Origin: a virus
DNA length: 64,000 nt
Direction: 5' to 3' (one strand)
IMG/VR virus record: IMGVR_UViG_3300012971_000018
Coordinates: 1-64,000 of that record
Shown here: piece by piece, positions 43,637 through 60,838 of the stretch
Layout: the number at the start of each line of letters is the position of its first letter
How positions within the stretch are numbered: the stretch's first letter is position 1
The notes under the pieces: generated by a model
The model's input: only the letters and a program-made list of their open reading frames with translations
What the model was told of the DNA's origin: nothing
Databases searched by the model: none
Translations under genes and position numbers: made by a program

Positions 43637-44662
43637 GTGTTCGACTGGCCCCGCTTCCTAAGAGCGCGCGGGATTGCCTTTGTCACGCGGGGACCCAACG
43701 TCGGCGCAGGGCACGTCGGCGTTCGCTGTCCTTGGTGCGGCGCGGCGGACCCGTCCCAGCACCTCTCGATCTCCCTGCGCGGGAGTTCCTACCATTGTTG
43801 GCGGAACTCGCGGGCGCATTCGGGGTCCAGCCGGGCGTGGCTAATCCAGGCGCTGCTGCGCTGCTCCCCCGAGGAGGCCCGCCAGATCGCCGGGGAGGAT
43901 GCGGTTACCGCTACCCCGAGGGATGCGGACCTCTCGGCCCTTCTTGCAAGCCTCCTGGCCGGCCCTAGGGAGCCCGTACGCGCGATTTCCCTCGAATTAG
44001 GTCCCGAGCTACGGCCGCTCCGGCAAAACGTCGGGGTGGCCTCTATTTTCTGGGGCTACCTGCTCGACCGGGGCTTCGAGGAGCGGGACCTGCGGTGGGT
44101 TGCGGAGGCGTATGACCTCCGGTTTGCGATAAAGGGGGTCGACCGTTATCGGGTCGTTATCCCGGTTTATGGCGCCGACGGCCGGCTCGCGACGTGGACC
44201 GGGCGCTCGGTGCTCGTGGACGAGCGGCTACGCTATCGGACGCTGCCGATGCGTCCCCCGTTCCCCGGCTATTCCGGCCCGCTCGCGCGGCTTCCCACGA
44301 CGGACCTGCTCCTGGGGATGCAGGTTCTCCAGCGCGTTGCCAATCCCGAGACATTAGTCGTCGCCGAAGGACCGCTCGACGCGCTTAAGGTTTCCGCGCT
44401 CGGTCGGACCCGCGGCATCTACGGGACATGCCTGTTTGGACTTAACATGAGCGAGGCGCAAGCCTTGCAGATCGAACGGATAGCGACGAGGTTCCGGCGC
44501 GTCGTTGTCCTGCTGGACCCGGATGCACAGACGCTAAATTTGCGAGTGGCGTCGCGTACCATGTGCCCGATGTCCGTTGGCAAACTGCCGGATGGCGTCG
44601 AGGACCCGGGAGCACTAACGCGGAGGAGCTTCGACAAGTTTGTGGAGCTAAGTTATGGGTAA
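43637..44662 (+). CDS. DNA primase (zinc finger + TOPRIM)
   Basis: CPWC...YHCW, RVVIP, VAEGPLDAL, LDPDA, DPG. Confidence 0.85.
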   Translation: MFDWPRFLRARGIAFVTRGPNVGAGHVGVRCPWCGAADPSQHLSISLRGSSYHCWRNSRAHSGSSRAWLIQALLRCSPEEARQIAGEDAVTATPRDADLSALLASLLAGPREPVRAISLELGPELRPLRQNVGVASIFWGYLLDRGFEERDLRWVAEAYDLRFAIKGVDRYRVVIPVYGADGRLATWTGRSVLVDERLRYRTLPMRPPFPGYSGPLARLPTTDLLLGMQVLQRVANPETLVVAEGPLDALKVSALGRTRGIYGTCLFGLNMSEAQALQIERIATRFRRVVVLLDPDAQTLNLRVASRTMCPMSVGKLPDGVEDPGALTRRSFDKFVELSYG

Positions 44663-45254
44663 TGAGGCACAGGGAAAGTATCTGGACGATGCAGTGCGGG
44701 GCTACATCGTAAACTTCGCCCGCAAGCATTTCTGGCGGGTGTCGTCGTGGTACGAGTTCGACGATCTTGTTCAGGATGGCTACCTGGTCTACGCGAAGTG
44801 CCGCAAGGGGTTTACCCCGGGCGACGCGCCGGAGACCGAGCACCAACGGATGTTCATGGCCTACTTTAAGGGGGCGCTGCAAAACCACATAACCGACTTG
44901 CAGCAGGACCCCCGCTCGCAGCGCATCGAGGTCGCGGTCGCCGATCTTGCCGAGGGCACCAGCCTCGACGGCGAGCAGGACCTCGAAGAGGCGGTGGCCA
45001 CGATTATCGCCCGGGCACCGTCGGAGATCGTCGACCTGCTTAAGCGCATCTTCGTCGATGGGGCGACCGAGGTGCCTTTTCTGGTACGGACGAGGATGGT
45101 GAAACAGCACTTGCCGGGGGCCGCCGTAGCGCGTATAACGCGCTCGCGTTGTCCTATTCGGGAGACCAATATCCAGCGGATCGACCGCTGTCTCGGAGCA
45201 GGCTCTGCGGCTAAGTTGCGCCAGTTTCTTAATGAGAGTGCCGGTTTAGTATGA
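44655..45254 (+). CDS. Sigma-factor-like protein
   Basis: FDDLVQDG...Y and F.AYF....N...D resemble sigma region 2. Confidence 0.6.
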   Translation: MGNEAQGKYLDDAVRGYIVNFARKHFWRVSSWYEFDDLVQDGYLVYAKCRKGFTPGDAPETEHQRMFMAYFKGALQNHITDLQQDPRSQRIEVAVADLAEGTSLDGEQDLEEAVATIIARAPSEIVDLLKRIFVDGATEVPFLVRTRMVKQHLPGAAVARITRSRCPIRETNIQRIDRCLGAGSAAKLRQFLNESAGLV

Positions 45255-46044: not shown

Positions 46045-46842
46045 GTGGTCGTCGAGGGAACCCCGCTAGAGGACTATCTCGTCGAGTACGGTTTGGTTGT
46101 GAAGCGGGAGGACCTGTGCTGCCCCGACGGGCCACGGTTCTCGAAGGCGCGCGGCGTCTACGCACACATTAAGAAGCAGCCGACAAAGTCGATCGCCGTG
46201 CTCGACACCCTCCATTCGCGTGGAGGGTGGGCGGTCGCGCAGGCTTGTGCGCTGCTCGGCAAGCGCTGCCAAGTCTTCTTTCCGGTTCGGAAGTATGCCG
46301 ACGCCGTCCCTGGCCTGTACCAGCGCGCCGCGGCGAAGTTCGGTGCGGAGCTATGCCCTGTTCCGGCCGTACGCTCGGCGATCCTCTATTCGCAGGTACG
46401 GAAGACGCTCGGGGCCGACGTTTACCTAATGCCCAATGCGCTTAAGCTCGACGAGAGCATTTCCGAGACGGCAAGCGAAGTGCTGCGGACGAAGCTCCCG
46501 CCGGGGATATCCACCATGCTGGTCTCGGTGTCGTCGGGGACGATCGCGGCGGGGGTTATCTGTGGGCTGCGATCGGCGGGCTGGCGTGGGAACATACTTA
46601 TTCATTTAGGCTACTCCCGTTCGAAGGCGGGGTTGCTAAACTATATTCGGTCTCGACAGCCGTGGGGCGGCTATCCGCCGACAACAGCGATCGACGAGGG
46701 GTATGCTTATTCGGACGTAGCCCGGTCCGGCCAGACGCCACCGTTCCCGTGCGACCAGTACTATGATTTGAAGGCGTTTCGGTGGTGGGATGCGGTGGGC
46801 CGGGAGCGCTACAAGAGGGCCATATTCTGGAATATTGGCTAA
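46045..46842 (+). CDS. PLP-dependent enzyme (fold type II), T-hypermodification decarboxylase-like
   Basis: VKREDL, SKARG (PLP Lys), SVSSGTIAAG, YYDLKA, FWNIG; cluster context. Confidence 0.8.
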   Translation: MVVEGTPLEDYLVEYGLVVKREDLCCPDGPRFSKARGVYAHIKKQPTKSIAVLDTLHSRGGWAVAQACALLGKRCQVFFPVRKYADAVPGLYQRAAAKFGAELCPVPAVRSAILYSQVRKTLGADVYLMPNALKLDESISETASEVLRTKLPPGISTMLVSVSSGTIAAGVICGLRSAGWRGNILIHLGYSRSKAGLLNYIRSRQPWGGYPPTTAIDEGYAYSDVARSGQTPPFPCDQYYDLKAFRWWDAVGRERYKRAIFWNIG

Positions 46843-46843
46843 T

Positions 46844-47758
46844 ATGGCAACCAAGCATAAATATTCTTGTACTGATACTCATTGGACCTACGGCGCCGAG
46901 TTCGAGCTGGACGACTGGCCGCGAAACGAGCCGTTGCCGGATGGGATGCACATCGATTACGACTGGTCGCTGGTAAATTCCAACGGCGTGGCGGTCGACG
47001 GACCGGGCGAGCTGTACCATCTGGGCGGCGAAATCCTGGCCCGTCCGTCCAATACGGTTAGCGGGGTCGCCGACCAGCTTGCGACGATTATGCACAAGTG
47101 GCCGCAGATTACGATTAACCACCGGACCGGGGTCCACATTCATATTAGGGTGCCCGGGCTGCGCGACGACCTGGAGAAGCTAAAAACGCTCCAGCGCAAT
47201 ATCCACGCCTGGATGCCGATACTGCTCCCGCTGGTCGAGCCGATCCCGCTTCCCCGGCCGGGGTGCGGCCCGGTGTGGAAGGGGGAGATTTGGTGCTACA
47301 AGAGGTGGAAGAAGCAGCACCAATATCTGCTGGAACCGTGGCGGGTAGCGCGCCAGATGGCGGCGCGAACCCCGCGGGAATTCTTCGAGGCCGAGGCGCT
47401 CCACGTTCCGTCCGGGCGGGTGCCCTGGGCGACCCGCCCGCGAGCTTGCGTAAACCTCCGCCAACTCCTGCAAACCGATACGATCGAGTTCCGGCACTTC
47501 CCGGGCAGTACGTCTCCTCACATTGTGAAGAACTGGGGGCTGTGGTGCCAGTTATTTTTGGAGCTTGCTTTGGAGCTTGTTCTGGGCGAGGACATTCCGT
47601 ATGATTTGACGGAATTCCTAAAAGGCTGGCAGACGCCGAAGTTCCCTCCGTACGACCATTGGTTGGAGACCGGTTATCGGTTTACCTCGCGGCGCTACCA
47701 TTCGAAGGACGAGGTCCGGGCGAACATAAAGACGTGGTTGGGAAGGAAGCGACCATGA
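46844..47758 (+). CDS. Putative amidoligase in DNA-modification cluster
   Basis: TYGAEFE, GGE, TGVHIHI, VNL, TIEFRHF.G. Confidence 0.75.
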   Translation: MATKHKYSCTDTHWTYGAEFELDDWPRNEPLPDGMHIDYDWSLVNSNGVAVDGPGELYHLGGEILARPSNTVSGVADQLATIMHKWPQITINHRTGVHIHIRVPGLRDDLEKLKTLQRNIHAWMPILLPLVEPIPLPRPGCGPVWKGEIWCYKRWKKQHQYLLEPWRVARQMAARTPREFFEAEALHVPSGRVPWATRPRACVNLRQLLQTDTIEFRHFPGSTSPHIVKNWGLWCQLFLELALELVLGEDIPYDLTEFLKGWQTPKFPPYDHWLETGYRFTSRRYHSKDEVRANIKTWLGRKRP

Positions 47759-48405
47759 AGCGGTTGGCGATCGTTACCGGGGCGGCTGGGGGCATTGGCA
47801 AGGCCGTTTGCGATAAGTTCCGGCAAGATGGTTGGGATGTCGTTGGCGTCGATATCGAGACCGACTGCGGGATTGGGAGATACGATGTGTCCGATCCGGG
47901 TGCAGTGCGCGAGCTTTTCCAAAAGATTAAAGGGGGCCGGAGCGAGAGGAAGGCGTTGGTAAACTGTGCGGGAGCGATCGAGTTCAATTCGATCCCCGAC
48001 ACTACTCTCCAAGACTGGAACCTTATGCTCCAGCATAATCTAACGACGGCGTTCGTTATGACCCGCGAGTTTGCCAAGTTCGGGTTGGGGACGATTGTAA
48101 ATGTTAGCTCGGTTAACGCGACCCTTTCGAGCGAGCACCGGGTAGGCTATGCGGCGGCGAAGGGCGGCATCGAGGCGTTTACCCGCATTTCGGCAACCCA
48201 GCTCGGCCCTAATATCCGGGTTAATTGCGTGGCGCTGGGGCCGATCCAGACCCGACAGGCAAACGGCCTGTCGCGACGGAATGTGCTGGGCCGGATCGGC
48301 TTGCCGGTCGAGGCGGCGGACCCGATCGTGTGGCTCTGTGGCGATGGAGCGTCGTACATTACCGGAGCAACGCTGGCAGTGGATGGGGGCTACGGGCTTA
48401 TTTAG
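47755..48405 (+). CDS. Short-chain dehydrogenase/reductase
   Basis: TGAAGGIG, VNCAG, VNVSS, YAAAK, IRVN, VDGG. Confidence 0.95.
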   Translation: MKRLAIVTGAAGGIGKAVCDKFRQDGWDVVGVDIETDCGIGRYDVSDPGAVRELFQKIKGGRSERKALVNCAGAIEFNSIPDTTLQDWNLMLQHNLTTAFVMTREFAKFGLGTIVNVSSVNATLSSEHRVGYAAAKGGIEAFTRISATQLGPNIRVNCVALGPIQTRQANGLSRRNVLGRIGLPVEAADPIVWLCGDGASYITGATLAVDGGYGLI

Positions 48406-48414
48406 GAGGGCCGA

Positions 48415-48771
48415 ATGGTGGTGTCTGCTCGGTGGGCAAATCGAGAGGATGCTCAACTAGATGGATACGGTATATTCTGGTGCGATGGGAAATCGCATCG
48501 TGCCCATCGTTGGATTTTTGAGAGGTGTGTTCGTAAGCTTAAGCCTTATGAGCAGGTTCTACATAAATTCGATAACACATGCTGCGTTAATTTAGACTGT
48601 TTGTATGTGGGAACCCACGCGGATAACATGCGGGACCTTCGCGAGCGGGGTAATGCTAAGGGCATTCCAAAGAGTGAGGAATGGAAGCGAAAAGCTCGTG
48701 CTGTCCCACAAGAAGTCCGCCGTCGTGCGGCTTTATTGGCTTGGAGACGTCGCCATGCAAAGCGAACTTGA
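48415..48771 (+). CDS. Free-standing HNH homing endonuclease, possibly degenerate
   Basis: GYG.F, RAHR, VLH..DN..CVN...L.VGT..DN..D; Cys where the second His is expected. Confidence 0.75.
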   Translation: MVVSARWANREDAQLDGYGIFWCDGKSHRAHRWIFERCVRKLKPYEQVLHKFDNTCCVNLDCLYVGTHADNMRDLRERGNAKGIPKSEEWKRKARAVPQEVRRRAALLAWRRRHAKRT

Positions 48772-50137
48772 TTGGATTAACCAGGACACCGCTAAGGAAA
48801 CGTACAATTACTACATGCGTACCGACCCGTCTATGCGCGAGATACTCGGCCCTATCGAGGAAGTATACGATGAGCACACAGGTCGGAAAATGCGTAGGCG
48901 GTTAGCAAAAGTGGCGATGATCCGAGGCTCAAAAGACGGTAAGGAAACTATAATCTATCTAGACCCGCTGCCACATGTTAGACTTGACAAGGCCAAGGAT
49001 TTGCAAGGTTGGTACAGTGGAAAAACAGACGGTGCTACTCGTGGGCAAAGAGACCGTCCTTGTATGACGGATGCTATCCTTACCCAACCCTATGGGGGCA
49101 CTTGCGAGGTCCAATGTGGGTTTTGCTACGTGAATTCTGGGTTTAGAGGATATCGCGGAGCTGGATTGACTACAGTTCCAATGGGATATGGAACGCATGT
49201 GCGCGCGCAGCTTAGTTCTATGAAGGTTGCTACGGCTGGATATTTTACGAGCTTTCACGATCCTTTCAACAGTTTGGAGGAGTACTACCACAACACCCAG
49301 CAGGGAGCCCAGGCATTTGTTGATTATGACCTTCCAATATTCTTCCTATCGCGGCTGTCCTATCCGGAGTGGGCGATAAACCTGCTACGTACTAACCCTT
49401 ACAGCTACGCGCAGAAATCGATCAATACGCCGGACCCCGAGGATTGGAAGAAGCTAAGCCCGGGTGCGCTGCCGCTCGCCGACCACTTCGCGGAGATTGC
49501 CAAGCTGCGCGCGGCCGGCATCTACGTGTCGATCCAGGTTAACCCCGTCGTCCCCGGCATTACGACCCACGAGGAGGTGGAGCAGCTATTCGAGAAGCTC
49601 GCCGCGGCCGGTGCCAACCACGTAATCGTTAAGTTCGTCGAGGCGAGCCACGCCTGGGTCGGCGCGATGGTGGAGCGGATGGCTACCCGGTTCGGCGCCA
49701 ACCGGGCGGCGCATTTCCGCGAGCTGTTCGTCGAGAATTCCTGCGGCGGGCAGAAGACCATAGCCGAGGAGTACCGGCGCGAGGGCCATACGCGGTACCG
49801 TAAGCGGGCTACTGAATTGGGGATGACCTATGCGTTGTGCTACGAGTACACGCGCACGCCCGACGGCTGGAAGTCGATGGGACCGGAGTTTCTAACGTCG
49901 GAGCAGTGCCACGGCCACCGGGTGCCGATGCATGTGCGACGAATGGGCAGATTTAGTCCGCTCTCGGTATGTCCTCCATCGGGGTGCCTGTCGTGCGCCG
50001 ACGAGAGCGGGAAAGGAAAATGCGGTTCGACCCTGCTCGGAGCGGCGAAGGCACTACGGATATCCGATTTGCGCAAGGATTGGGATGGAGACCCGGAGCA
50101 TGTTAGGACCCGCCGAGTTCGGGCGCCAGCTAATTAA
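48755..50137 (+). CDS. Radical SAM enzyme (hypermodification isomerase-like)
   Basis: CEVQCGFCY, DPF, second Cys cluster at C-terminus; GGAGA RBS. Confidence 0.85.
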   Translation: MQSELDWINQDTAKETYNYYMRTDPSMREILGPIEEVYDEHTGRKMRRRLAKVAMIRGSKDGKETIIYLDPLPHVRLDKAKDLQGWYSGKTDGATRGQRDRPCMTDAILTQPYGGTCEVQCGFCYVNSGFRGYRGAGLTTVPMGYGTHVRAQLSSMKVATAGYFTSFHDPFNSLEEYYHNTQQGAQAFVDYDLPIFFLSRLSYPEWAINLLRTNPYSYAQKSINTPDPEDWKKLSPGALPLADHFAEIAKLRAAGIYVSIQVNPVVPGITTHEEVEQLFEKLAAAGANHVIVKFVEASHAWVGAMVERMATRFGANRAAHFRELFVENSCGGQKTIAEEYRREGHTRYRKRATELGMTYALCYEYTRTPDGWKSMGPEFLTSEQCHGHRVPMHVRRMGRFSPLSVCPPSGCLSCADESGKGKCGSTLLGAAKALRISDLRKDWDGDPEHVRTRRVRAPAN

Positions 50138-50876
50138 GACCGGAGACCTCGATCCGGTCTACATCGCCATTAACGGTGCAAAGCTCCCCCACAAGCAACT
50201 GGCCAAGCTCCTGTTCGCCTATTGGTGTTTCTACCATCTGGGCCTCGCGGCGTGGCTATCCGAGCAGAAACACTATTGGCGATCGATGCGGACCGCGGCG
50301 GAGAACGTAACCGAGACCCCGTACGGCGGTCCCTGGCCGCGCGGTACGGAGCGTCGCCACTTCCGCGGTTACCTGGCGGTGCGTGCGGTGGACATCCTGT
50401 CGAGGAAGTCCCCCGAGGCGTATGTCGAGGCTCTGTTGAAGATGCGGACCGTGGCGGAGATTATGGGCGCTACCAGCCAATGGCCGCTGTTTGGACCGTG
50501 GATCGGCTACAAGATTGCGGATATGGTCGATCGGTGTCTTGGCTCTCCGGTCGAGTTTACCCCGGACGTCTGCCTGCTCTACAAGGAGCCCCGGGCCGCA
50601 CTCGATCTTATCCCCGGGGCGGTTTCGGCCGAGCAGAAGCTGGTCGATTTGCTGGGCGAGCTGGACGACCAGAAAGCCCCGCCAACGGGCGACCGGGCGC
50701 TGGGCTTCGCCGAGGTCGAGACCGTGCTGTGTAAGTGGAAGTCCTACCGTAGCAAGCATTATTTCATTGGGAAGGACATCTACGAGGTGCGCCACCACTT
50801 GGCCCATTGGGGTGCGGGCACGATGCTAAAGGCCATGCCGGCGGTGCCGTTCATATTCCGGGGGCGGATGCCATGA
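50100..50876 (+). CDS. Amino acid:DNA transferase (aGPT-Pplase2 family)
   Basis: DLDPVY, YW.FY, RGTERRHFRG, FGPWIGYKIADM, E.ET.LCKWK. Confidence 0.8.
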   Translation: MLGPAEFGRQLIKTGDLDPVYIAINGAKLPHKQLAKLLFAYWCFYHLGLAAWLSEQKHYWRSMRTAAENVTETPYGGPWPRGTERRHFRGYLAVRAVDILSRKSPEAYVEALLKMRTVAEIMGATSQWPLFGPWIGYKIADMVDRCLGSPVEFTPDVCLLYKEPRAALDLIPGAVSAEQKLVDLLGELDDQKAPPTGDRALGFAEVETVLCKWKSYRSKHYFIGKDIYEVRHHLAHWGAGTMLKAMPAVPFIFRGRMP

Positions 50877-51436
50877 TCGTTAATGTGCGCGGCGGGAGCG
50901 GAAGTGGCAAGACCCATGTGGTGCGCGAGCTAATGAATGGCGGCAGGCCGGTCTCGCTCTATGGGGTGCTAGGGATAAAGTATCCCGAAGCCTATCGGGT
51001 CTCGCTCCCAGGCGTAACGCAGCCCCTGCACATTATCGGACCCTACACGACGAACGTCGGGGGATGCGACAGGCTGTCCTACGATAAGATCATTCCTCTG
51101 CTGGAGAAGTACGAGAAGCGGGGCCACGTCCTGTTCGAAGGTCTGCTCGTATCGGACAACTACGGCATTATCGGAGAGTGGCTTACCAAGCGCGGCCACA
51201 ACGCGCTTATCGTGTTCCTGGATACTTCGCTGGCAGTATGTCTGGAACGGCTGCGCATCCGTTCGGGCTACGATGCAGACTTGCGGAAGCCGCTAACGAC
51301 GGTGGCCATGCGGTACGAGACCATAAAGCGCGCGAAGGCAAAGTTCGAGAAGGAAGCCAAGGTTAGCCTGCTCGAAGTTTCCTCGACAAGCGCGGCGGAC
51401 CAGATACACCAATGGATAATTGACAATGATAGATGA
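50873..51436 (+). CDS. P-loop nucleotide kinase
   Basis: IVNVRGGSGSGKT, GGCD, LFEG, FLDT....C..R...R. Confidence 0.8.
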   Translation: MIVNVRGGSGSGKTHVVRELMNGGRPVSLYGVLGIKYPEAYRVSLPGVTQPLHIIGPYTTNVGGCDRLSYDKIIPLLEKYEKRGHVLFEGLLVSDNYGIIGEWLTKRGHNALIVFLDTSLAVCLERLRIRSGYDADLRKPLTTVAMRYETIKRAKAKFEKEAKVSLLEVSSTSAADQIHQWIIDNDR

Positions 51437-52301
51437 ACAACTGCATTGGTTTACGCACTGGGTATCCGAGCGCGAGAAGGTTCGGATCGCCAAGCTGGGC
51501 GGCGCCCGGCCGCCGTGGACGAACGACCCGATTATCGCCAAGTACCGGTTCTGTAACGTCCGGCGGAAGGACGATCGCGTCTCGCGCTGGTTAATCAAGA
51601 ATGTCCTTACCGCGGAAATCTTCCACCGTGTCGGCCCCAAGGCGTTTATGGAGTTTACCGCGTTCTGCCGGTGGAACAATTGGCCGCCGTCGATCGGTGC
51701 GGTCTTAGAGCGCGATCTTTTGCGGCCTAGCATCGATTGGGGTGCCGTCGTGCGGGTCCTGCAAGATCGCAAGCGGCGCGGGGAGAAGGTGTGGACGGGT
51801 GCCTACGTGGTCTATGCCGATGCCAAGACCGACAAGGCGGAATACGTGGCCAGTGTCGCGCGGGCCGTCGGCGAGATGTGGGACCGGCTACAGACCGATA
51901 CCCGGATTGGATATCGCCAGCGGGTGTGGGAGACGCTAACCGATATCCGTGGCATGGGCTCGTTCATGGCTGGGCAGATCGTCGACGATTGGACGTGGAC
52001 ACCGTTGCTGTGGCTATCGCGCGATCTCTACGAATGGGCGCCGCAAGGCCCGGGGTCGCTGCGGGGGCTAAACCGGATTATCGGCCACCCGCTTACCCAG
52101 AGCATAATTATGAACGACTGGATGGCCCATCTTAACGCTTGCCGCAGGCACATAATCGAGACGCTTGGCAAGGACTATCGCAACCTTACGGCGCACGATG
52201 TGCAGAATTGCCTGTGCGAGTTCGACAAGTACATGCGGGTTAAGAACGGGGAAGGCAAGCCGCGGTCGACGTACCAGCCGGAGACGGGGTATGTGGTATG
52301 A
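51426..52301 (+). CDS. 5-hydroxymethyluracil DNA kinase (aGPT-Pplase1 family)
   Basis: ERE, PWT.DPI...RFCNVRR.DD.VS, FMAGQ...D, GPGS.RGL, QNCLCEFDKY.R. Confidence 0.85.
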   Translation: MIDEQLHWFTHWVSEREKVRIAKLGGARPPWTNDPIIAKYRFCNVRRKDDRVSRWLIKNVLTAEIFHRVGPKAFMEFTAFCRWNNWPPSIGAVLERDLLRPSIDWGAVVRVLQDRKRRGEKVWTGAYVVYADAKTDKAEYVASVARAVGEMWDRLQTDTRIGYRQRVWETLTDIRGMGSFMAGQIVDDWTWTPLLWLSRDLYEWAPQGPGSLRGLNRIIGHPLTQSIIMNDWMAHLNACRRHIIETLGKDYRNLTAHDVQNCLCEFDKYMRVKNGEGKPRSTYQPETGYVV

Positions 52302-52501
52302 GTAAGAAACCTGTCGGCTACTTCGTCTGGACCCGCCGTAATGGCAGGCTGTCCCCCCGGAAGTATGGCGAGGACTTCCACCGTGCCGGTCGCAAGGATG
52401 GCACAGAATACGACCACGATGCCCCACCGGCTTATCCACTAACCGAAGCCGAGTGGGGTATGTCTTTGGACGAGCTGGCAAGGAGATATCCGCATGGGTA
52501 G
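52298..52501 (+). CDS. Hypothetical protein
   Basis: ATGA overlap. Confidence 0.5.
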   Translation: MSKKPVGYFVWTRRNGRLSPRKYGEDFHRAGRKDGTEYDHDAPPAYPLTEAEWGMSLDELARRYPHG

Positions 52502-52892
52502 CCAAGCAGGACGCAAAGTACAGAGCTGGGTTAGCACCCCGCAGGGCTGTTTTCTTAAGGGGCTCCTGCATGCTCTTGGGAACCGGGGATGGATGGACAT
52601 GGGGCTGCGTGGAAGTGCCTATAACGAATACGTCTACAGGCATTACGCTCGCCTCGTGCCTTACCACCAGGATTATTGGGAACGTCCGCGGACCAAAAAG
52701 AGCATTGTGGGTCGCGCTATGACCACGACAAGATCGCACCATGCTTCGAGGGAGAATGCATTCGAAAATGACTATACTGCGCCATACATGGGATTGGTCT
52801 TTAATCTGTTGGAGCGCGACAAGCCCTGGGAACGTGCGGAGCTGGACGCGCGTATCGCGCGTATCGCTGCGATAGCAGCGAGGGCGGCATGA
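52494..52892 (+). CDS. Hypothetical protein
   Basis: AAGGAG RBS; ATGA overlap with HD gene. Confidence 0.5.
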   Translation: MGSQAGRKVQSWVSTPQGCFLKGLLHALGNRGWMDMGLRGSAYNEYVYRHYARLVPYHQDYWERPRTKKSIVGRAMTTTRSHHASRENAFENDYTAPYMGLVFNLLERDKPWERAELDARIARIAAIAARAA

Positions 52893-53446
52893 CCCCGTTG
52901 GAGCGCGTAATTGCGATCCGGACCGGCGGCGGCACCGAGCGCGCCCACGGCATTCGCCACCATGGCTCCTATTCGGTCGCCAGCCATACATGGGGCGTTC
53001 TAACGCTGGTCTACGTGCTGTGGGGACCCGAGTTCTTTGCCCGGGTCGCCGCCGCGGTAACGTTCCACGACGTTCCCGAGGCTTGGGTCGGCGACATCCC
53101 GGCGCCGACGAAGCGTTACAATATGTCGGTTAAGCTCGCGGTCGACCAGATGGACCAAGCCGTGCTTAAGCGGCTCGATCTGCTTACGCCGTACGTGGGT
53201 CTTAGCTTAGAGGACAAGGCCAGGATTAAGGCCGCGGACATGCTGGAGCTGTATCTGTGGGCGGCGGAGGAAGTCGCGGGGGGCAACAGGCACGCCGCCT
53301 GTCTTATGCGGGAGCTAATACGCTATTTCGGCGAGCAGAGGATGCCGGACGAGTTCTACCCGATATGGACGGAGCTTGCCACCGGCGGCAGCGTAGAGCA
53401 CGCGAGCGACGGCCTTATCTACGAGATAAACAAGAAAGCGGAATAG
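52889..53446 (+). CDS. HD-domain deoxynucleotidase (YfbR-like)
   Basis: SVASH, HD.PE...GDIP.P.K, K.AD.LE. Confidence 0.85.
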   Translation: MTPLERVIAIRTGGGTERAHGIRHHGSYSVASHTWGVLTLVYVLWGPEFFARVAAAVTFHDVPEAWVGDIPAPTKRYNMSVKLAVDQMDQAVLKRLDLLTPYVGLSLEDKARIKAADMLELYLWAAEEVAGGNRHAACLMRELIRYFGEQRMPDEFYPIWTELATGGSVEHASDGLIYEINKKAE

Positions 53447-55336
53447 ATGATTACACTTATGGTGGGTTCGGTGGACGAGGCGCTCTGTCGGGGCGTCGCG
53501 CTCCTGCGCAAGGTCGGCGTAAAGCAGACGTCCCGGGCCGGCGATGTGTGGGTCGCACCCAGCCCGGTTACGACGATCTTCCACGATCCGGTAAAGCGGG
53601 TGCTGTTTAATGCGCATCGCGATGCCAATCCGTTCTTCCATCTGTTCGAAAGCCTGTGGCTGCTGGCCGGTCGCGACGATGCTACGTGGCTGGACCAGTT
53701 TGTCGGCGACTTCTCTTCGCGCTTCGCCGAGAGCGACGGAGTGCTCCATGGTTCCTACGGCCACCGGTGGCGGGAGGCGCTCGGCCTCGACCAGCTATTT
53801 GAGGTCGTGGAGAAGCTAAAGGCCAACCCCGACGATCGGCAATGCGTCCTCCAGATGTGGGACGCGCGGGACGACTGGCACGCGGATGGAGAGTATTCCG
53901 CGCACTCCGGATGCAACGATTTGCTAGGCAATTGGAAGGATCGGCCGTGTTTGGCGGGGGATACCGTTGTGTGGTCGCCCGAGGGGGACCTTCCTATTGC
54001 TGCGTTGGCGGAAAAGTTTGCGGCTGGTGTAAAACGTTGGCCCGTTTATTCCGTGAACGAGATGTCCAAGAAGTTGGAGATAAGGTGGGCTACAAATTGC
54101 TGGAGAAGCGGACGAAGGCGTACTGTAGTTCTAACTTTTGATGATGGTACGTCAATTCGAGCAACAGCGGACCACGTATTTTACGTATATCCTAAGAGGA
54201 TTGGTAGAAATGGGAAGGTAAGCGCCTTGGCGGCAAAACCGTGTCGGGTAGATAAGCTGCGGCCGGGGGATCGGGTATTAGCAACACAGCGGTTTTCCGG
54301 CAAGAAGGGCCACGAGGTAATTAAAAAGTGTTTGGCCGGGAATACGGCCTTTCGCAATATGCAGCAGACGCACAATGCGTATTATCGTCTTGTGTATGGC
54401 TCAATTCCAGAAGATTGTGAGCTTCATCATGTAGACGAAGTTAAGCGTAACAATAAGATCGCCAATTTGGAGCCACTCGATCCAGGAGAACATAGCCGAT
54501 TGCACAAAGTTGGGGATCGAAATCCGATGAGAAACATGACGGCTGCGCAGCACCGAGCGCGTGGTCGTAAGCAGTCGGTGTCGCTAAAGGCTGCTTGGGC
54601 TAAGCTTACTCCGATGCAGCGTGTTGCGAGATCGAAGGGTCTCCCCATAACCAACCACAGGATTGTTAGTATCGGTCCGGGACCGATCGAGGATGTATAC
54701 GATTTTACGGTTCCCGGTTTCCACACTGCAATAGTTGGTACTGGTGTGGTAACTCATAATTGCAACACCCATGCCTACCTTCGGGTTCGGGATGGGCTCT
54801 TGGACCTTACGGTGTGCTGCCGGTCGAACGATATTATCTGGGGCGCATACGGTGCCAATGCTGTGCAATTTTCCATGCTGCAAGAGTACCTCGCGGCGCG
54901 GATCGGCGTCGGCGTCGGCATCTATTACCAGATTAGCAACAACTACCACGCTTACGACAATGTTATCGACTGGAGCTTGGGCGAGAAGAACGCGCTAACG
55001 GATTGGGGGTGGTCGTACCGGGACTTCTGTGTCGAGCCGCTTGCGTTGGTTACCAATCCGGAGACGTTCGACCGGGAGCTGTCGTGCTTCTTTAAGCGGC
55101 CGGAGAGTTTTCTTCCGCTCGATCCCGTCCTTGCCCTGCGCACAGGTGGGCGGAACGAGTACGAGAACTTGTTCTTCCCTCGGGTAGCTGTCCCGCTTTA
55201 CCGCGCCATTCGGACGTGGAAGGACAAAGCGGTAGAGGACCGGAAGAAATTGGCAATACAGGAGTTGGATAGCGCACCAGCCGAGAACGACTGGAAGCTG
55301 GCCGCCCAGCAGTGGATGCAGAAGAGGATTAAATGA
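53447..55336 (+). CDS. dUMP hydroxymethylase (thymidylate synthase fold) with intein
   Basis: SRAG, ANPFF...E, YG.RW, DRQ, spliced DRPCN, RSND..WG..GAN (Asn implies dUMP), N.HAY. Confidence 0.85.
   Translation: MITLMVGSVDEALCRGVALLRKVGVKQTSRAGDVWVAPSPVTTIFHDPVKRVLFNAHRDANPFFHLFESLWLLAGRDDATWLDQFVGDFSSRFAESDGVLHGSYGHRWREALGLDQLFEVVEKLKANPDDRQCVLQMWDARDDWHADGEYSAHSGCNDLLGNWKDRPCLAGDTVVWSPEGDLPIAALAEKFAAGVKRWPVYSVNEMSKKLEIRWATNCWRSGRRRTVVLTFDDGTSIRATADHVFYVYPKRIGRNGKVSALAAKPCRVDKLRPGDRVLATQRFSGKKGHEVIKKCLAGNTAFRNMQQTHNAYYRLVYGSIPEDCELHHVDEVKRNNKIANLEPLDPGEHSRLHKVGDRNPMRNMTAAQHRARGRKQSVSLKAAWAKLTPMQRVARSKGLPITNHRIVSIGPGPIEDVYDFTVPGFHTAIVGTGVVTHNCNTHAYLRVRDGLLDLTVCCRSNDIIWGAYGANAVQFSMLQEYLAARIGVGVGIYYQISNNYHAYDNVIDWSLGEKNALTDWGWSYRDFCVEPLALVTNPETFDRELSCFFKRPESFLPLDPVLALRTGGRNEYENLFFPRVAVPLYRAIRTWKDKAVEDRKKLAIQELDSAPAENDWKLAAQQWMQKRIK
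53948..54760 (+). mobile_element. Intein with in-frame HNH endonuclease (271 aa)
   Basis: CLAGDT start, ATADH block B, HHVDEVKRNN..NL......EH...H, VYDFTV...THN|C end. Confidence 0.92.
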
Positions 55337-55767
55337 CAAACTATGTCGCGCAGGTCGGTGGCGACCACTACAAGTCGGCGTACGCGCATTGGGACCTCGC
55401 GATCGATATTCGTTGGGGCTATCTCGACGGTTCCGCGGCGAAGTACATATCGCGGTGGCGCAAGAAGGGTGGGGTCCAAGACCTGCGCAAGGCGCTAAGC
55501 TACATCGACAAGCTAATTGGGACGTTGGCGACCGAGAAACAGCAGCTTCCGCCGGCTGTTGCAAACACTCTCCAATTGGAACGGTTTTGCGATGCGCATG
55601 GCTTCGTTAAGGGTTCGCTGGAGCGGACTGCAATAATTTATCTGGGGTCGTGGGCGTTTCGCAGCGACCTCGAAGTCGCGCGGGTAGCAGTGGTGGAGCT
55701 TATCGCCGAAAACGAGGTCCCGACGACCGACAGTAACAAGCACGCCAAGCAGGAGGAGCAATGCTAG
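55333..55767 (+). CDS. DUF3310 (T7 gp1.7-like nucleotide kinase family) protein
   Basis: QVGGDHYK, KYISRW.KKGG..DL.KA..Y. Confidence 0.85.
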   Translation: MTNYVAQVGGDHYKSAYAHWDLAIDIRWGYLDGSAAKYISRWRKKGGVQDLRKALSYIDKLIGTLATEKQQLPPAVANTLQLERFCDAHGFVKGSLERTAIIYLGSWAFRSDLEVARVAVVELIAENEVPTTDSNKHAKQEEQC

Positions 55768-57370: not shown

Positions 57371-60300
57371 ATGGGGTTGTTGTATGCGGCCCAGGCTACA
57401 GTCGATGTTAGGGCGCGCCAGGAAGCCGTGCTCTACCAACGGATGGGCTGCAATATGTGCCCGCTTAACGATGTGCAGCCGGGGCGCGCCAATGCGACGG
57501 GTTCGGAGCATCCGCTAATATTATTCATAGGCGAAGCCCCCGGCAAGGAGGAGCAACGGACCGGCGAGCAGTTCGTCGGCGAGTCCGGGCAACTTCTGCG
57601 CCCGCGCATCCCGGAGGAATGGCTGCCGGATATTCGATGGACCAATACTGTTCATTGTCGTCCCTCGTATGGCAACGGCCACAATCGGACCCCCGAGCAC
57701 GACGAGATCGAGTGCTGCCGGCCGCGGTGGGTTGCCGACATCGAACGGACCAAGCCGAAGGCGATCTTTGCTTTCGGTAACGTCCCACTCCTGGCGATTA
57801 CCAACTTTACCGGCATAACGCTGTGGCGCGGGAGGCGGCTGCCGGTAAGGATCGGGTCGCACGTCTGCTGGCTCTATCCCATGCTCCATCCGGCCCACAT
57901 CCTGCGCCAGCGGCGGGACGAGGATCGTGGCAAGGATGCCAGGTTTGTTGGCTCCGAAGAGGAGCGGATGTTCGAGTTCGATCTCTACAAGGCATTGGAC
58001 GAGGTCGACGCCGGACTGCCACGGCCGATCGTCCACGACGAGAAGGAAGCCCGCCGCGGCGTCGAGATTGTAACCGAGGGCGGGCGGGAAGGGCTGCACC
58101 GGATCGAGGCCGCGCTTAGGTGGGCGTCCGCGCAGGACGATATCGGGTTCGACTACGAGACGCTGGGGCTACGGCCGTATGGTGCCAATGCCAAGATACT
58201 TACGGTCGCGGTCGCGACTGCGGACCGTGCGATTGCGTTTCCGATCCACCATCGCGAAGCCCGGTTCTCCGACAAGGAGCGCAAGACAATCGAGGATTTG
58301 GTCTGCAATTTCCTGTGCCAGTCCGGGCGTGTGTGGGTGCATAATCTGTCCTTCGAGATGGAATGGACGGCGGTTAAGTTCGGCCGCGACCTGCTGTACG
58401 CTACGCAGTGGCAGGACACGGCGACGCAGGCTTCCATTATTGACGAGCGGAAAGGCAATACCAAGCCGGGATGCTTTTCCCTCGAATGGCTCGTAATGCA
58501 GTACTTCGGCTTTAACCTTAAGAAGCTGTCCCCGCTAAACAAAGCTAATCTCGACCGCGAGCCGCTGCCAAAGGTGCTCGCCTATAATGCGATGGACGCC
58601 AAGTACCATCTGCGGCTTGGGCTGGAGCAGCAGGTAGTCATAAAGCAGCAGGGTCTGCAATCGGTCTACGAGCTGTCGTTGCGGCGGGTGCCGGCGGTCG
58701 TTACGTCGCAGGTCCTGGGCGTGCCGGTCGACCAGGACGAGAACGAGCGTCTGCACGCCAAGTACGCCAAGCGGGTCGCCAGCCTGGAGGCCGAAATCCA
58801 GCAGGTGCCGTTAATCCAGGGGTACAACAGCGACAACGCCGAGCCGTTTAACCCCGGCTCGAACCCGCAGTGCGTCGACGTTTTCTATCGGCGGCTAAAG
58901 CGCAAGGAGTGTCTGGTCGTCGACAAGTTCTCCAAGCGGGAGCGGCTGTCCTGCAATGAAGACGTACTAACCAAGATCGAGCACCCGCTGTCGAAGCTAA
59001 TCGTCCGCTGGCGCAAGGCGAAGCGGCAGGACTCGACCTACATCCAAGCATTGGCCCCGGGGACCGAGAATTCGGCGCTGTGGCCCGACGGTCTTCTGCA
59101 TAGTACGTTCAACACTTACTGGGTCGAGACCGGCCGGCTAAGCTGCTCGGCCCCTTGGACCGAGGTTAAGACCAGTCGTGGTGTGGTCCAGATCAAGGAC
59201 GTTATTGCAGGCGATTTGGTGTGGACCCACAGACAACGCTGGCGTTTAGTTACGCGGGCTTGGAGCAAAGGCTTCGAACAGATGTTCGACGTTGTATTGT
59301 CTAATGGGAAAGTTTTGACTTGCACCAAAAACCACCGTCTGCTATCCAAGGCCAGTGGCTGGATAACGGTTGGAGAGTTGTATGACGTATTCCAAGAGAT
59401 GGGTCGAGACGCCGGGGAATATAAAGCGCGTACTGGCGCTTTATCGCAGCAAGGAGTTGGTTCCAACAGAGCAGATAGCCAAGACGTTGGGCACATCGGT
59501 ACCAAACGTCTACGAGGCTATCAAACGGAACATGCCATTGGTCGAGAAGCAGGCTCTATCATCTGTTCGCTATTCGGCATCGAAGCTGGGCACAAAAAAT
59601 CCGATGCTGGGGCGAACTGGAGATCGGCATCCGAATTGGAAGGGGGAATGTTTGGATGGTCATGGTGGTTATTTGACCATAAAGGTTGGAAAGCGTCGTA
59701 TTTTTCTCCACCACCACTTGCTTATGCAGGCATTGGGTCTACCAGAAGTCCCACGCGGTTGGATGGTACACCATATCGATGGCGACCCGTTGAACAACGA
59801 CGTGGACAATTTGGCTTTGGTGACGGCTCGCGGACACAAAGCTATCCACTACAGACAGTTGGAGACCAAGACGTTGCGATTAAAGAAATCAAAGCTGGCG
59901 GAAGCTTTGAAGTATTTGATCTAACAGTAGAGGAGGACGCCAGCTATGAGACCTGTGGAGTATTTTCGCACAATAGCGAATTTCCAAACCTTCAGAATTT
60001 CCCGAAGCGCGACGGCGAGGCCGTCGAGGTCCGCCGGCAGGTCCAGGCCGCCCCTGGATATAGTATCATATCTCTGGACCTGGGCCAGATCGAAGCCCGT
60101 GTCGTCGCGATGTTTACCAAGGACCCGGTCTATGTAAAGCAATTGTGGGACAAGTTCGACATCCACAAGGATTGGGCCGAGCGGATCGCTTTCGCCTATC
60201 CGGATCGGATCGGCGGGTCGAAGAACCTAAAAGACCCGAAGGTAATGAAGACCTTTCGCAGTGACATAAAGAACCAGTGGACCTTCCCTCTGCTCTACGG

Positions 60301-60838
60301 TGCATCGTGCAAGTCGGTGGCTGGTTCTCTAAGCATTCCCGAGGACAAGCTAACGCCGCTGTACGACCAGTTCTGGAGCGAGTTCTCGACGGTAAAGAAA
60401 TGGCAGGAGGACCAGCTAAGGTTCTACCGTCGGCACGGCTATGTGGAATGCCTAACCGGCCGTCGGCGCCACGGTCCGCTGTCCCTTAACAAGGTCTACA
60501 ACACCCCGGTCCAGGGCACCGCAGCCGAGATAATCATGGACCGTATGTGTTACATGGTCGAGAGCGGCGATCCCGAGCTGCTGCCCGAGCTGCAAATCCA
60601 CGACGATCTAACCTTCCTGCGGGTGCGGGAGGAACGGGCCGAGGAAGTCGCGGGGAAGATATTGGACATTATGCTGGACCTGCGGCACTTCCCATGGGTG
60701 AACGTGCCGATATCCGTCGAGGTGGCAACCGGCTTTAACTGGATGCCTTGGGACAAGGACAACAACCCGGAAGGGCTAAGGGCGATGCCGGAAAGCTATT
60801 TCTCGAACGAGTGGCTAAAGGCGAGAGGAATAACATGA
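57371..60838 (+). CDS. polA: Family A DNA polymerase with N-terminal family-4-like uracil-DNA glycosylase domain, 3'-5' exonuclease and intein
   Basis: C..CPL, IGEAPG..E...G..FVG.SG, HPA; FDYET, HNL.FE, YNAMD; spliced TGRLS|SEFPNLQN, DLGQIEAR, R...K....F...YG, NTPVQGTA, IHDD. Confidence 0.92.
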   Translation: MGLLYAAQATVDVRARQEAVLYQRMGCNMCPLNDVQPGRANATGSEHPLILFIGEAPGKEEQRTGEQFVGESGQLLRPRIPEEWLPDIRWTNTVHCRPSYGNGHNRTPEHDEIECCRPRWVADIERTKPKAIFAFGNVPLLAITNFTGITLWRGRRLPVRIGSHVCWLYPMLHPAHILRQRRDEDRGKDARFVGSEEERMFEFDLYKALDEVDAGLPRPIVHDEKEARRGVEIVTEGGREGLHRIEAALRWASAQDDIGFDYETLGLRPYGANAKILTVAVATADRAIAFPIHHREARFSDKERKTIEDLVCNFLCQSGRVWVHNLSFEMEWTAVKFGRDLLYATQWQDTATQASIIDERKGNTKPGCFSLEWLVMQYFGFNLKKLSPLNKANLDREPLPKVLAYNAMDAKYHLRLGLEQQVVIKQQGLQSVYELSLRRVPAVVTSQVLGVPVDQDENERLHAKYAKRVASLEAEIQQVPLIQGYNSDNAEPFNPGSNPQCVDVFYRRLKRKECLVVDKFSKRERLSCNEDVLTKIEHPLSKLIVRWRKAKRQDSTYIQALAPGTENSALWPDGLLHSTFNTYWVETGRLSCSAPWTEVKTSRGVVQIKDVIAGDLVWTHRQRWRLVTRAWSKGFEQMFDVVLSNGKVLTCTKNHRLLSKASGWITVGELYDVFQEMGRDAGEYKARTGALSQQGVGSNRADSQDVGHIGTKRLRGYQTEHAIGREAGSIICSLFGIEAGHKKSDAGANWRSASELEGGMFGWSWWLFDHKGWKASYFSPPPLAYAGIGSTRSPTRLDGTPYRWRPVEQRRGQFGFGDGSRTQSYPLQTVGDQDVAIKEIKAGGSFEVFDLTVEEDASYETCGVFSHNSEFPNLQNFPKRDGEAVEVRRQVQAAPGYSIISLDLGQIEARVVAMFTKDPVYVKQLWDKFDIHKDWAERIAFAYPDRIGGSKNLKDPKVMKTFRSDIKNQWTFPLLYGASCKSVAGSLSIPEDKLTPLYDQFWSEFSTVKKWQEDQLRFYRRHGYVECLTGRRRHGPLSLNKVYNTPVQGTAAEIIMDRMCYMVESGDPELLPELQIHDDLTFLRVREERAEEVAGKILDIMLDLRHFPWVNVPISVEVATGFNWMPWDKDNNPEGLRAMPESYFSNEWLKARGIT
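59144..59974 (+). mobile_element. Intein (277 aa) with no in-frame endonuclease
   Basis: CSAPWTEV start, CTKNH block B, VFDLTV...SHN|S end; removal restores GRLSS.PNLQN. Confidence 0.92.
59382..59924 (+). CDS. HNH homing endonuclease in the +1 frame inside the PolA intein
   Basis: GGAGAG RBS then ATG; HTH-like IAKTLGTS..NVY, KNPM.G..G..HPNWKG, GY, H, VHHIDGDPLNN..DNL.......H...H. Confidence 0.88.
   Translation: MTYSKRWVETPGNIKRVLALYRSKELVPTEQIAKTLGTSVPNVYEAIKRNMPLVEKQALSSVRYSASKLGTKNPMLGRTGDRHPNWKGECLDGHGGYLTIKVGKRRIFLHHHLLMQALGLPEVPRGWMVHHIDGDPLNNDVDNLALVTARGHKAIHYRQLETKTLRLKKSKLAEALKYLI

Follow-up and report, generated by a model that had tools for sequence, protein, structure and literature searches.

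A carboxylate-amine ligase and a short-chain dehydrogenase within an M6-type thymidine hypermodification cluster

Introduction

What might a predicted amide-forming ligase and a short-chain dehydrogenase/reductase (SDR) be doing amongst the genes by which a virus hypermodifies its thymidines? The question is posed by the IMG/VR record IMGVR_UViG_3300012971_000018, of which the first 64 kb of a single contig of 111,906 bp were analyzed (this whole stretch of 64,000 nucleotides is called the window). From 46045 to 55767 lie genes of ten enzyme and domain types, recognized in Pfam, PHROG and NCBIfam scans, all of them on the + strand, co-directional and tightly packed. The cluster resembles that of Pseudomonas phage M6 but has two additional enzyme genes, one for a ligase of the Amidoligase_2 family, the other for an SDR.

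By hypermodifying thymidine, phages protect their DNA against restriction and other nucleases, and the modifications are also a source of enzymes for labelling DNA. The tailoring steps known so far are those of a radical SAM (rSAM) isomerase, a pyridoxal phosphate (PLP)-dependent decarboxylase, a flavin lyase and an acetyltransferase; a ligase is not among them (2026, PMC13458397). I propose that the phage completes the M6 route, that the ligase, an enzyme with the fold of glutamine synthetase (GS), acylates the resulting 5-aminoethyl-deoxyuridine on DNA, and that the SDR may then oxidize or reduce the appended group. The probability that thymine is tailored in these two steps, both of them on DNA, I put at about 0.3.

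The M6 route in the window

In phage M6, 5-hydroxymethyl-deoxyuridine (5-hmdU) is turned into 5-PmdU, N-alpha-GlyT, C-alpha-GlyT and lastly 5-aminoethyl-deoxyuridine (5-NedU), the enzymes being transferase gp51, PLP decarboxylase gp52, rSAM isomerase gp53 and kinase gp54 (PMC8989533, Lee et al. 2021). A preliminary description of the window, made from its letters alone, had summarized this chemistry accurately, as checked against the paper, and had recognized its enzymes here; their orthology is well borne out, catalytic residues included. The rSAM enzyme matches that of 53 M6-like Pseudomonas phages at 59% identity, with 96% of its length aligned, and its cluster motif CEVQCGFC (CxxxCxxC) corresponds to CTVGCAFC of M6 gp53. 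A full-length alignment of the PLP enzyme with its counterpart in phage AN14 (species M6) gives 45-48% identity, and the lysine of FSKxRG, K34, equivalent to K36 of M6 gp52, is retained. The kinase is 32-33% identical to those of M6 and PaMx11, and the N-extein of the hydroxymethylase 45% identical to the M6-type enzyme. The Pfam matches to hydroxymethylase (PF00303), kinase (PF18748/PF18723) and transferase (PF18724) all fall within 5 kb on the same strand.

The transferase, 40% identical to PaMx11 gp46 and 38% to the M6-type enzyme, retains D24, R94, W146, K150, E243 and C247, residues whose roles were assigned from the solved structure of gp46 (PMC11472151). An alignment that takes in two virome homologues besides gp46 and the M6-type enzyme shows the glycine-binding D24, W146 and K150 and the catalytic C247 to be invariant. 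Judged by these residues, it is probably specific for glycine.

Given this orthology, the phage very probably follows the M6 route to 5-NedU. The intein-bearing hydroxymethylase would supply 5-hmdUMP, which would then be built into DNA, where the P-loop kinase and its helical partner would phosphorylate 5-hmdU. The transferase would swap the phosphate for glycine, giving N-alpha-GlyT, the rSAM enzyme would isomerize this to C-alpha-GlyT, and the PLP enzyme would decarboxylate the latter to 5-NedU.

The likeness to M6 extends beyond these enzymes: the transferase, PLP enzyme, rSAM enzyme, kinase, helical partner, hydroxymethylase, HD hydrolase, DUF3310 protein and the downstream DNA polymerase A (PolA) all have homologues here, at 30-59% identity and with catalytic motifs kept. 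The genomes differ in kind, however, M6 being a siphovirus of 60 kb and this phage having a myovirus-like genome of 112 kb. Gene order differs as well (PLP-ligase-SDR-HNH-rSAM-transferase-kinase, as against transferase-PLP-rSAM-kinase in M6), and inteins split the hydroxymethylase and PolA in this phage.

The fold of the amidoligase

The match of the amidoligase to PF12224 is marginal, close to the gathering cutoff of 22 bits. The protein belongs to a family of more than 218 homologues (40-59% identity), and in the Atlas it lies next to viral Amidoligase_2 clusters (score 0.96). Its AlphaFold2 (AF2) model, built on 34 homologues, has a mean confidence (pLDDT) of 92. When compared with PDB structures (VIA-align, all-against-all), the model finds carboxylate-amine ligases at each of the top 19 places, with Z scores from 10.5 (YbdK, 1tt4) down to 5.7, the next match having a Z of 4.2. 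These chains are YbdK, glutamate-cysteine ligases (GCL), glutamine synthetases, gamma-glutamylmethylamide synthetase (GmaS) and PafA/Dop, and Foldseek gives the fold matches probabilities of 0.97-0.99. The model has the curved antiparallel sheet, forming an active-site funnel, that marks the GS/GCL superfamily. On strands of that sheet sit the residues invariant in the family (E19/E21, E63, H100/R102 and E215/R217/H218), which in the model is where the metal and phosphate site would be expected in this superfamily. The kinship is visible only at the level of the fold, since a profile of the ligase family drew only chance matches from the sequences of the PDB. The preliminary description was right, in short, to call the protein an amidoligase: it is a genuine carboxylate-amine ligase of the GS/GCL fold.

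In GS, GCL/YbdK, GmaS and PafA, an acyl phosphate is formed on the gamma-carboxyl of glutamate and then handed to an amine. The phage ligase has the fold of these gamma-glutamyl-amine-forming enzymes, and its invariant acidic and basic residues are arranged as in them, but it is only 10-16% identical to them, is much smaller (304 aa) and lacks the N-terminal domain of GS. Because of the fold and the position of the invariant residues on the sheet strands, it can soundly be inferred from the model that the amidoligase forms amides in an ATP-dependent manner, passing an acyl phosphate to an amine. A published Klebsiella "amidoligase" was considered for comparison and set aside: that enzyme is an ATP-grasp and is not relevant.

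The company kept by the amidoligase

Viral contigs scanned with the single ligase sequence gave nothing; scans guided by a profile succeeded, and the 80 viral and 80 metagenomic loci fetched in this way, together with that of phage Simon (PQ683277), make up 125 unique loci. The survey of gene neighbourhoods that the preliminary description had called for found the tie of the amidoligase to thymidine hypermodification clusters strongly conserved. A transferase occurs in 89 of the 125 unique loci, and amongst the well-flanked ones (at least 5 kb on both sides, n=38) 35 have a transferase within 10 kb and 33 a kinase. In three well-flanked viral loci (L017, L020 and L082), the amidoligase is present with no transferase or kinase detectable within 10 kb, and two of them have a phosphatase; the partners there may be divergent, or the ligase may be used otherwise. 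Amongst 50,697 phage records, only Simon has a full-length match to the ligase; in one Vibrio jumbo phage the match is partial, covering 31% of its length.

The loci are built in three ways. Type (a) has a dioxygenase of the TET/JBP kind, a glutamine amidotransferase (GATase) of the N-terminal nucleophile (Ntn) type, the ligase, a low-molecular-weight (LMW) phosphatase, the transferase and the kinase. Type (b) has the hydroxymethylase, an FAD oxidase like PaMx11 gp47, the ligase, usually the phosphatase, the transferase and the kinase. Type (c), which is rare, has the hydroxymethylase, the rSAM enzyme, the PLP enzyme and the ligase; a ligase is found with a PLP enzyme in about 6 of the 125 unique loci, 4 of which also have the rSAM enzyme. 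In a quick maximum-likelihood tree, the ligases of type (a) group in a single clade and those of (b) and (c) are intermixed; the ligase of the window nests among five type (b) loci (SH-aLRT 97). Two of these five lie on contigs of 110-120 kb and share flanking genes with the window. On this showing the window resembles a relative of type (b) in which the rSAM/PLP module of M6 has taken the place of the oxidase module.

The regular downstream partner of the ligase is the LMW Cys phosphatase, which adjoins it in 90 of 125 loci and is fused to it in L019. All 111 copies examined retain the C-x5-R-S loop, and amongst the phage records the phosphatase, too, is matched only in Simon. The genome of the window has no homologue of the GATase, the LMW phosphatase, the oxidase or TET.

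That matches to amidoligase and amidotransferase Pfam families co-occur with clusters of this sort, their functions unknown, has been reported (Lee et al. 2021, PMC8989533), and a paper of 2026 on T-dioxygenases names GATases, kinases and transferases (AADT) as partners in TET/JBP clusters (PMC13229309). The association of amidoligase and cluster is therefore already known; its combination with the M6 route is rare, and the SDR has so far been seen only here. The uncharacterized amidoligase-bearing virome clusters have a ligase of the same family (33-59% identity) with the same tie to transferase and kinase, but none has the SDR, and most have the LMWPc phosphatase that this genome is without. 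In the literature no reported product was found for clusters that bear an amidoligase.

Acylation of an amine on DNA

There is a well-understood precedent for capping an amine on DNA. In the pathway of PaMx11 leading to 5-AcNmdU, transferase gp46 and FAD oxidase gp47 produce a primary amine on the DNA, which then receives an acyl cap from acetyltransferase gp48. Phage Simon has the ligase (with LMWPc) between the FAD oxidase and the kinase, the very position of gp48, and the same is true of oxidase-type clusters, where homologues of gp48 are absent wherever the ligase is present: a gp48-like acetyltransferase is missing from all 54 loci fetched that have a gp47-like oxidase. In types (b) and (c), moreover, the ligase stands beside enzymes that expose a primary amine on DNA and destroy the carboxylate of the glycine, be it the FAD oxidase or the rSAM and PLP enzymes together. 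Since these neighbours remove the carboxylate and expose the amine, and since the PLP enzyme needs that amine free, the one order of events that fits is formation of the amine, then ligation.

I propose that the ligase uses ATP to activate a free acid as its acyl phosphate and joins the acid to the primary amine of 5-NedU, giving N-acyl-5-aminoethyl-dU. This step would be the ATP-dependent counterpart of the capping of 5-aminomethyl-dU in PaMx11, which depends on acetyl-CoA. The logic would be the same in the two phages, with a GS/GCL-fold ligase here in place of the GCN5-related acetyltransferase (GNAT) of PaMx11, and an aminoethyl group, made by the rSAM/PLP route, in place of the aminomethyl group made by the oxidase route.

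How far should this be believed? That the ligase acylates a DNA-borne amine with a free acid has, from the comparison of sequences, odds slightly in its favour. The idea goes back to the preliminary description; of what was claimed there, acylation is the best fit to the comparative data (the ligase in the GNAT slot, the mutual exclusion of ligase and GNAT, the retention of amine-generating enzymes), while the product stays a prediction. If acylation is right, there are roughly even odds, by analogy, that the acid is glutamate, joined through its gamma-carboxyl. This is the leading guess because the characterized members of the superfamily that were matched activate that carboxyl. A base outside the characterized set, whatever its exact form, is the predicted product in virion DNA, and I consider it probable, if by no great measure.

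The dehydrogenase

The start of the SDR gene overlaps the stop of the amidoligase gene (ATGA), and the gene sits between two genes of the pathway. The enzyme appears intact: it has TGAAGGIG (TGxxxGIG), NCAG, N95/N116, S119 and Y132xxxK136, the last residues making up the N-S-Y-K tetrad, and its AF2 model (pLDDT 93.7) superimposes on FabG-type structures with a TM score of about 0.9. Its isoelectric point (pI) is 8.3, whereas 119 homologues have a median of 5.7; in this it resembles the DNA-acting enzymes of the cluster, which are basic. In base composition the gene resembles the genome, with a GC content at third codon positions (GC3) of 0.71 and TCA/TGA trinucleotides at 0.19 of expectation (genome, 0.26). 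An arrival of the SDR together with the adjoining HNH endonuclease gene was considered and rejected, the compositions of the two genes differing sharply.

The slot that the SDR fills, just after the ligase, varies from one relative to another. L095 has the order PLP-ligase-LMWPc-rSAM, the same as here with a phosphatase in the slot, and in L003-L005, amongst the closest relatives of the window's cluster, an rSAM-SPASM gene lies directly 3' of the ligase. In the proposed scheme, the SDR, translationally coupled to the ligase, would oxidize or reduce a hydroxyl or keto group, whether on the moiety already appended or on that moiety's free precursor. Of the whole scheme this step is the weakest. 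Whether the SDR belongs to the pathway, tailoring the appended group, I regard as evenly balanced.

Weighing the alternatives

Several observations weigh against the proposed scheme. In the literature searched, no known substrate was found for any member of PF12224. In most clusters an active-looking Cys phosphatase lies beside the ligase or is fused to it, and simple acylation of an amine leaves it unexplained, because amide ligation needs no phosphatase. In the TET/JBP-type clusters the partner of the ligase is an Ntn class-II GATase, and no enzyme is present to generate an amine; amidation of a DNA-borne carboxylate would suit such a pairing better. A gamma-glutamyl group offers the SDR no obvious substrate. 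The preliminary description had, beforehand, named a want of conserved linkage of the two genes to such clusters amongst the things that would refute it, and by that yardstick its proposal for the SDR fails: no homologue of the SDR occurs in the 125 unique amidoligase loci, and the six viral loci with distant SDRs have no hypermodification genes. Most similar to the SDR are three metagenomic proteins (43-48% identity; the closest is P0122, from a 21.5-kb Logan contig) and SDRs of Micromonospora and Salinispora (42-44%), all of unknown role, and the latter, the nearest from cells, have no hypermodification genes nearby.

What else, then, could the two enzymes be doing? The carboxylate that the ligase activates might already be on DNA, as the glycine carboxyl of N-alpha-GlyT or C-alpha-GlyT; coupling to ammonia or a free amine would then leave an amide on DNA. 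A GATase together with a ligase that forms acyl phosphates is the classic logic of an amide synthetase, and the largest clade (TET/JBP type, about 45-50 loci) has just that: a class-II GATase-like gene flanking the ligase (48 of 50 copies have Met-Cys) and neither decarboxylase nor oxidase. This explanation may hold for type (a) clusters. For the window it is less parsimonious, and I think it unlikely, because here, as in all loci of the oxidase and rSAM/PLP types, that carboxylate is removed by neighbouring enzymes (by the FAD oxidase as glyoxylate, by the PLP enzyme as CO2), and a ligase working on it would make the removing enzymes redundant or be undone by them. The window's ligase, besides, belongs to a clade without the GATase, of which its genome, too, has no homologue. 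An altogether different thought is that ligase and SDR act off the DNA, making or trimming a small-molecule nucleophile or acyl donor or modifying a protein or cell-wall target, and that the base is plain 5-NedU, as in M6. A passage of PMC10580990, citing Iyer 2009, has amidoligase-GATase pairs in phages without thymidine clusters and a proposal that they modify other targets, and the three well-flanked loci without detectable transferase or kinase would fit. Such a role is nonetheless quite improbable when nearly all well-flanked loci have the transferase close by, when the transferase retains its glycine-binding residues, so that no special nucleophile is needed, and when the ligase takes the place of an acetyltransferase that acts on DNA, which favours a DNA substrate. 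Finally, the ligase might work as proposed and the SDR be an unrelated auxiliary metabolic gene, a FabG-like moron, in which case the base is the same N-acyl-5-NedU as in clusters that lack the SDR. The want of linkage just described is what this explanation expects, PHROG classes FabG-like SDRs as morons or auxiliary metabolic genes, and a mobile HNH gene lies directly downstream. It is harder to square with the overlap of the SDR with the ligase stop and its place between two pathway genes, with a composition fully ameliorated where that of the HNH gene is not, with a basic pI unlike that of its homologues, and with a slot that in relatives is a variable place for tailoring enzymes. I hold it to be rather unlikely. 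Acylation of the amine on DNA, perhaps followed by oxidation or reduction of the appended group, is the explanation I continue to prefer.

Implications

Members of this amidoligase family occur in more than 100 virome clusters, none with a known substrate. The present genome pairs the ligase with the well-understood M6 route, and for that reason the substrate can be predicted (DNA with 5-NedU) and the prediction directly tested. The result would assign a function to the whole amidoligase family and show whether ATP-dependent ligation of amides on DNA exists. It would also show whether the downstream slot, filled by LMW phosphatase, rSAM-SPASM or SDR, serves to diversify the base further. If two-step tailoring is true, the phage Amidoligase_2 family would have its first substrate, and the SDR would, to my knowledge, be the first enzyme of its class known to act on a modification of a DNA base.

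Layout of the cluster and its mobile genes

The ten gene types listed in the preliminary description are upheld, in the order given there and all on the + strand, by matches to Pfam, PHROG and NCBIfam; left out of that inventory were a free-standing HNH gene, two small open reading frames (ORFs) and the intein of the hydroxymethylase (Table 1). Gene boundaries were set by inspection of start codons; the plain list of ORFs begins too far upstream for the amidoligase, SDR, rSAM enzyme, transferase and kinase. The ATG of the amidoligase comes 1 nt past the stop of the PLP enzyme, and the start of the kinase overlaps the stop of the transferase (ATGA). From about 43.6 to 60.8 kb every gene is on the + strand with hardly any gaps. 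A scan of the region for promoters and terminators gave only background levels.

Table 1. Genes of the cluster in the window, with examples of genes adjoining the amidoligase in other loci.
Feature	Coordinates	Strand	Matches
PLP-dependent enzyme, orthologue of M6 gp52 C-alpha-GlyT decarboxylase	46045-46842	+	PALP 1.5e-5; phrog_7093 3e-63
Amidoligase_2-family carboxylate-amine ligase, 304 aa (P0001)	46844-47758	+	PF12224 22.5 bits
Short classical SDR, FabG-like, 216 aa (P0121)	47755-48405	+	adh_short_C2 4e-39
Free-standing HNH homing endonuclease	48415-48771	+	phrog_6254, phrog_59 at 8e-12
Radical SAM enzyme, orthologue of M6 gp53 N-alpha-GlyT isomerase	48755-50137	+	phrog_9252 1e-183; no match in Pfam scan
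Amino acid:DNA transferase (aGPT-Pplase2)	50100-50876	+	PF18724 8e-11
P-loop 5-hmdU DNA kinase	50873-51436	+	PF18748, AAA_33 (weak); GSGSGKT Walker A
HMUDK helical-domain protein (aGPT-Pplase1, HMUDK_hel)	51426-52301	+	PF18723 1.7e-44
Two small basic ORFs, 67 and 132 aa, pI 9.1 and 9.9	52298-52501, 52494-52892	+	no Pfam or PHROG match
HD/YfbR-like 5'-deoxynucleotidase	52889-53446	+	PF12917 3e-10
Thymidylate-synthase-like dUMP hydroxymethylase with intein	53447-55336	+	PF00303 in two stretches; Intein_splicing; HNH_3; TIGR01445; TIGR01443
DUF3310 protein	55333-55767	+	PF11753
rSAM/SPASM gene directly 3' of amidoligase in closest relatives of the window's cluster	L003 10779-12065; L004 10047-11243; L005 10888-12054		
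LMW phosphatase, examples	L001 12860-13381; L019 9677-11356; L095 1144-1602		

The HD gene is syntenic with the HD genes of M6 and PaMx11, and the position of the DUF3310 gene is kept in M6- and PaMx11-type clusters, with homologues in L001, L002, L003 and other loci. The HNH gene, situated between the SDR and rSAM genes and overlapping the start of the latter with its end, has a GC content of 0.50 and a GC3 of 0.43, as against about 0.6 and 0.75 in its neighbours; it is a mobile insert and not a member of the pathway. The intein of the hydroxymethylase, about 270 aa from C168 to HN and itself HNH-bearing, is inserted directly before the catalytic Cys of the P-C pair (in DRP/C...HN/CNTH, the slashes mark its ends). 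Across the whole genome the trinucleotides TCA and TGA stand at 0.26 of expectation and TTA and TAA at 1.46. In the HNH gene and the intein, GC3 is 0.43-0.49 and TCA/TGA stand at 0.45 of expectation, and this weaker depletion serves as a useful marker of the time that an insert has been in residence.

The DNA of the cluster has no match by megablast amongst the 50,697 phage records, a set from which close relatives may be missing, and the tail-sheath protein is closest (56%) to its counterparts in Burkholderia myophages. Just upstream of the cluster lies a small ORF (44655-45254), whose synteny is kept in L003 and L004; it has a weak match to Sigma70_r2 and could encode a sigma factor of the phage. 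Downstream, DNA polymerase A (57371-60838) has an N-terminal uracil-DNA glycosylase (UDG) domain in addition to its intein; a paper of 2026 (PMC13697223) deals with UDG-PolA fusions in phages whose genomes are T-modified.

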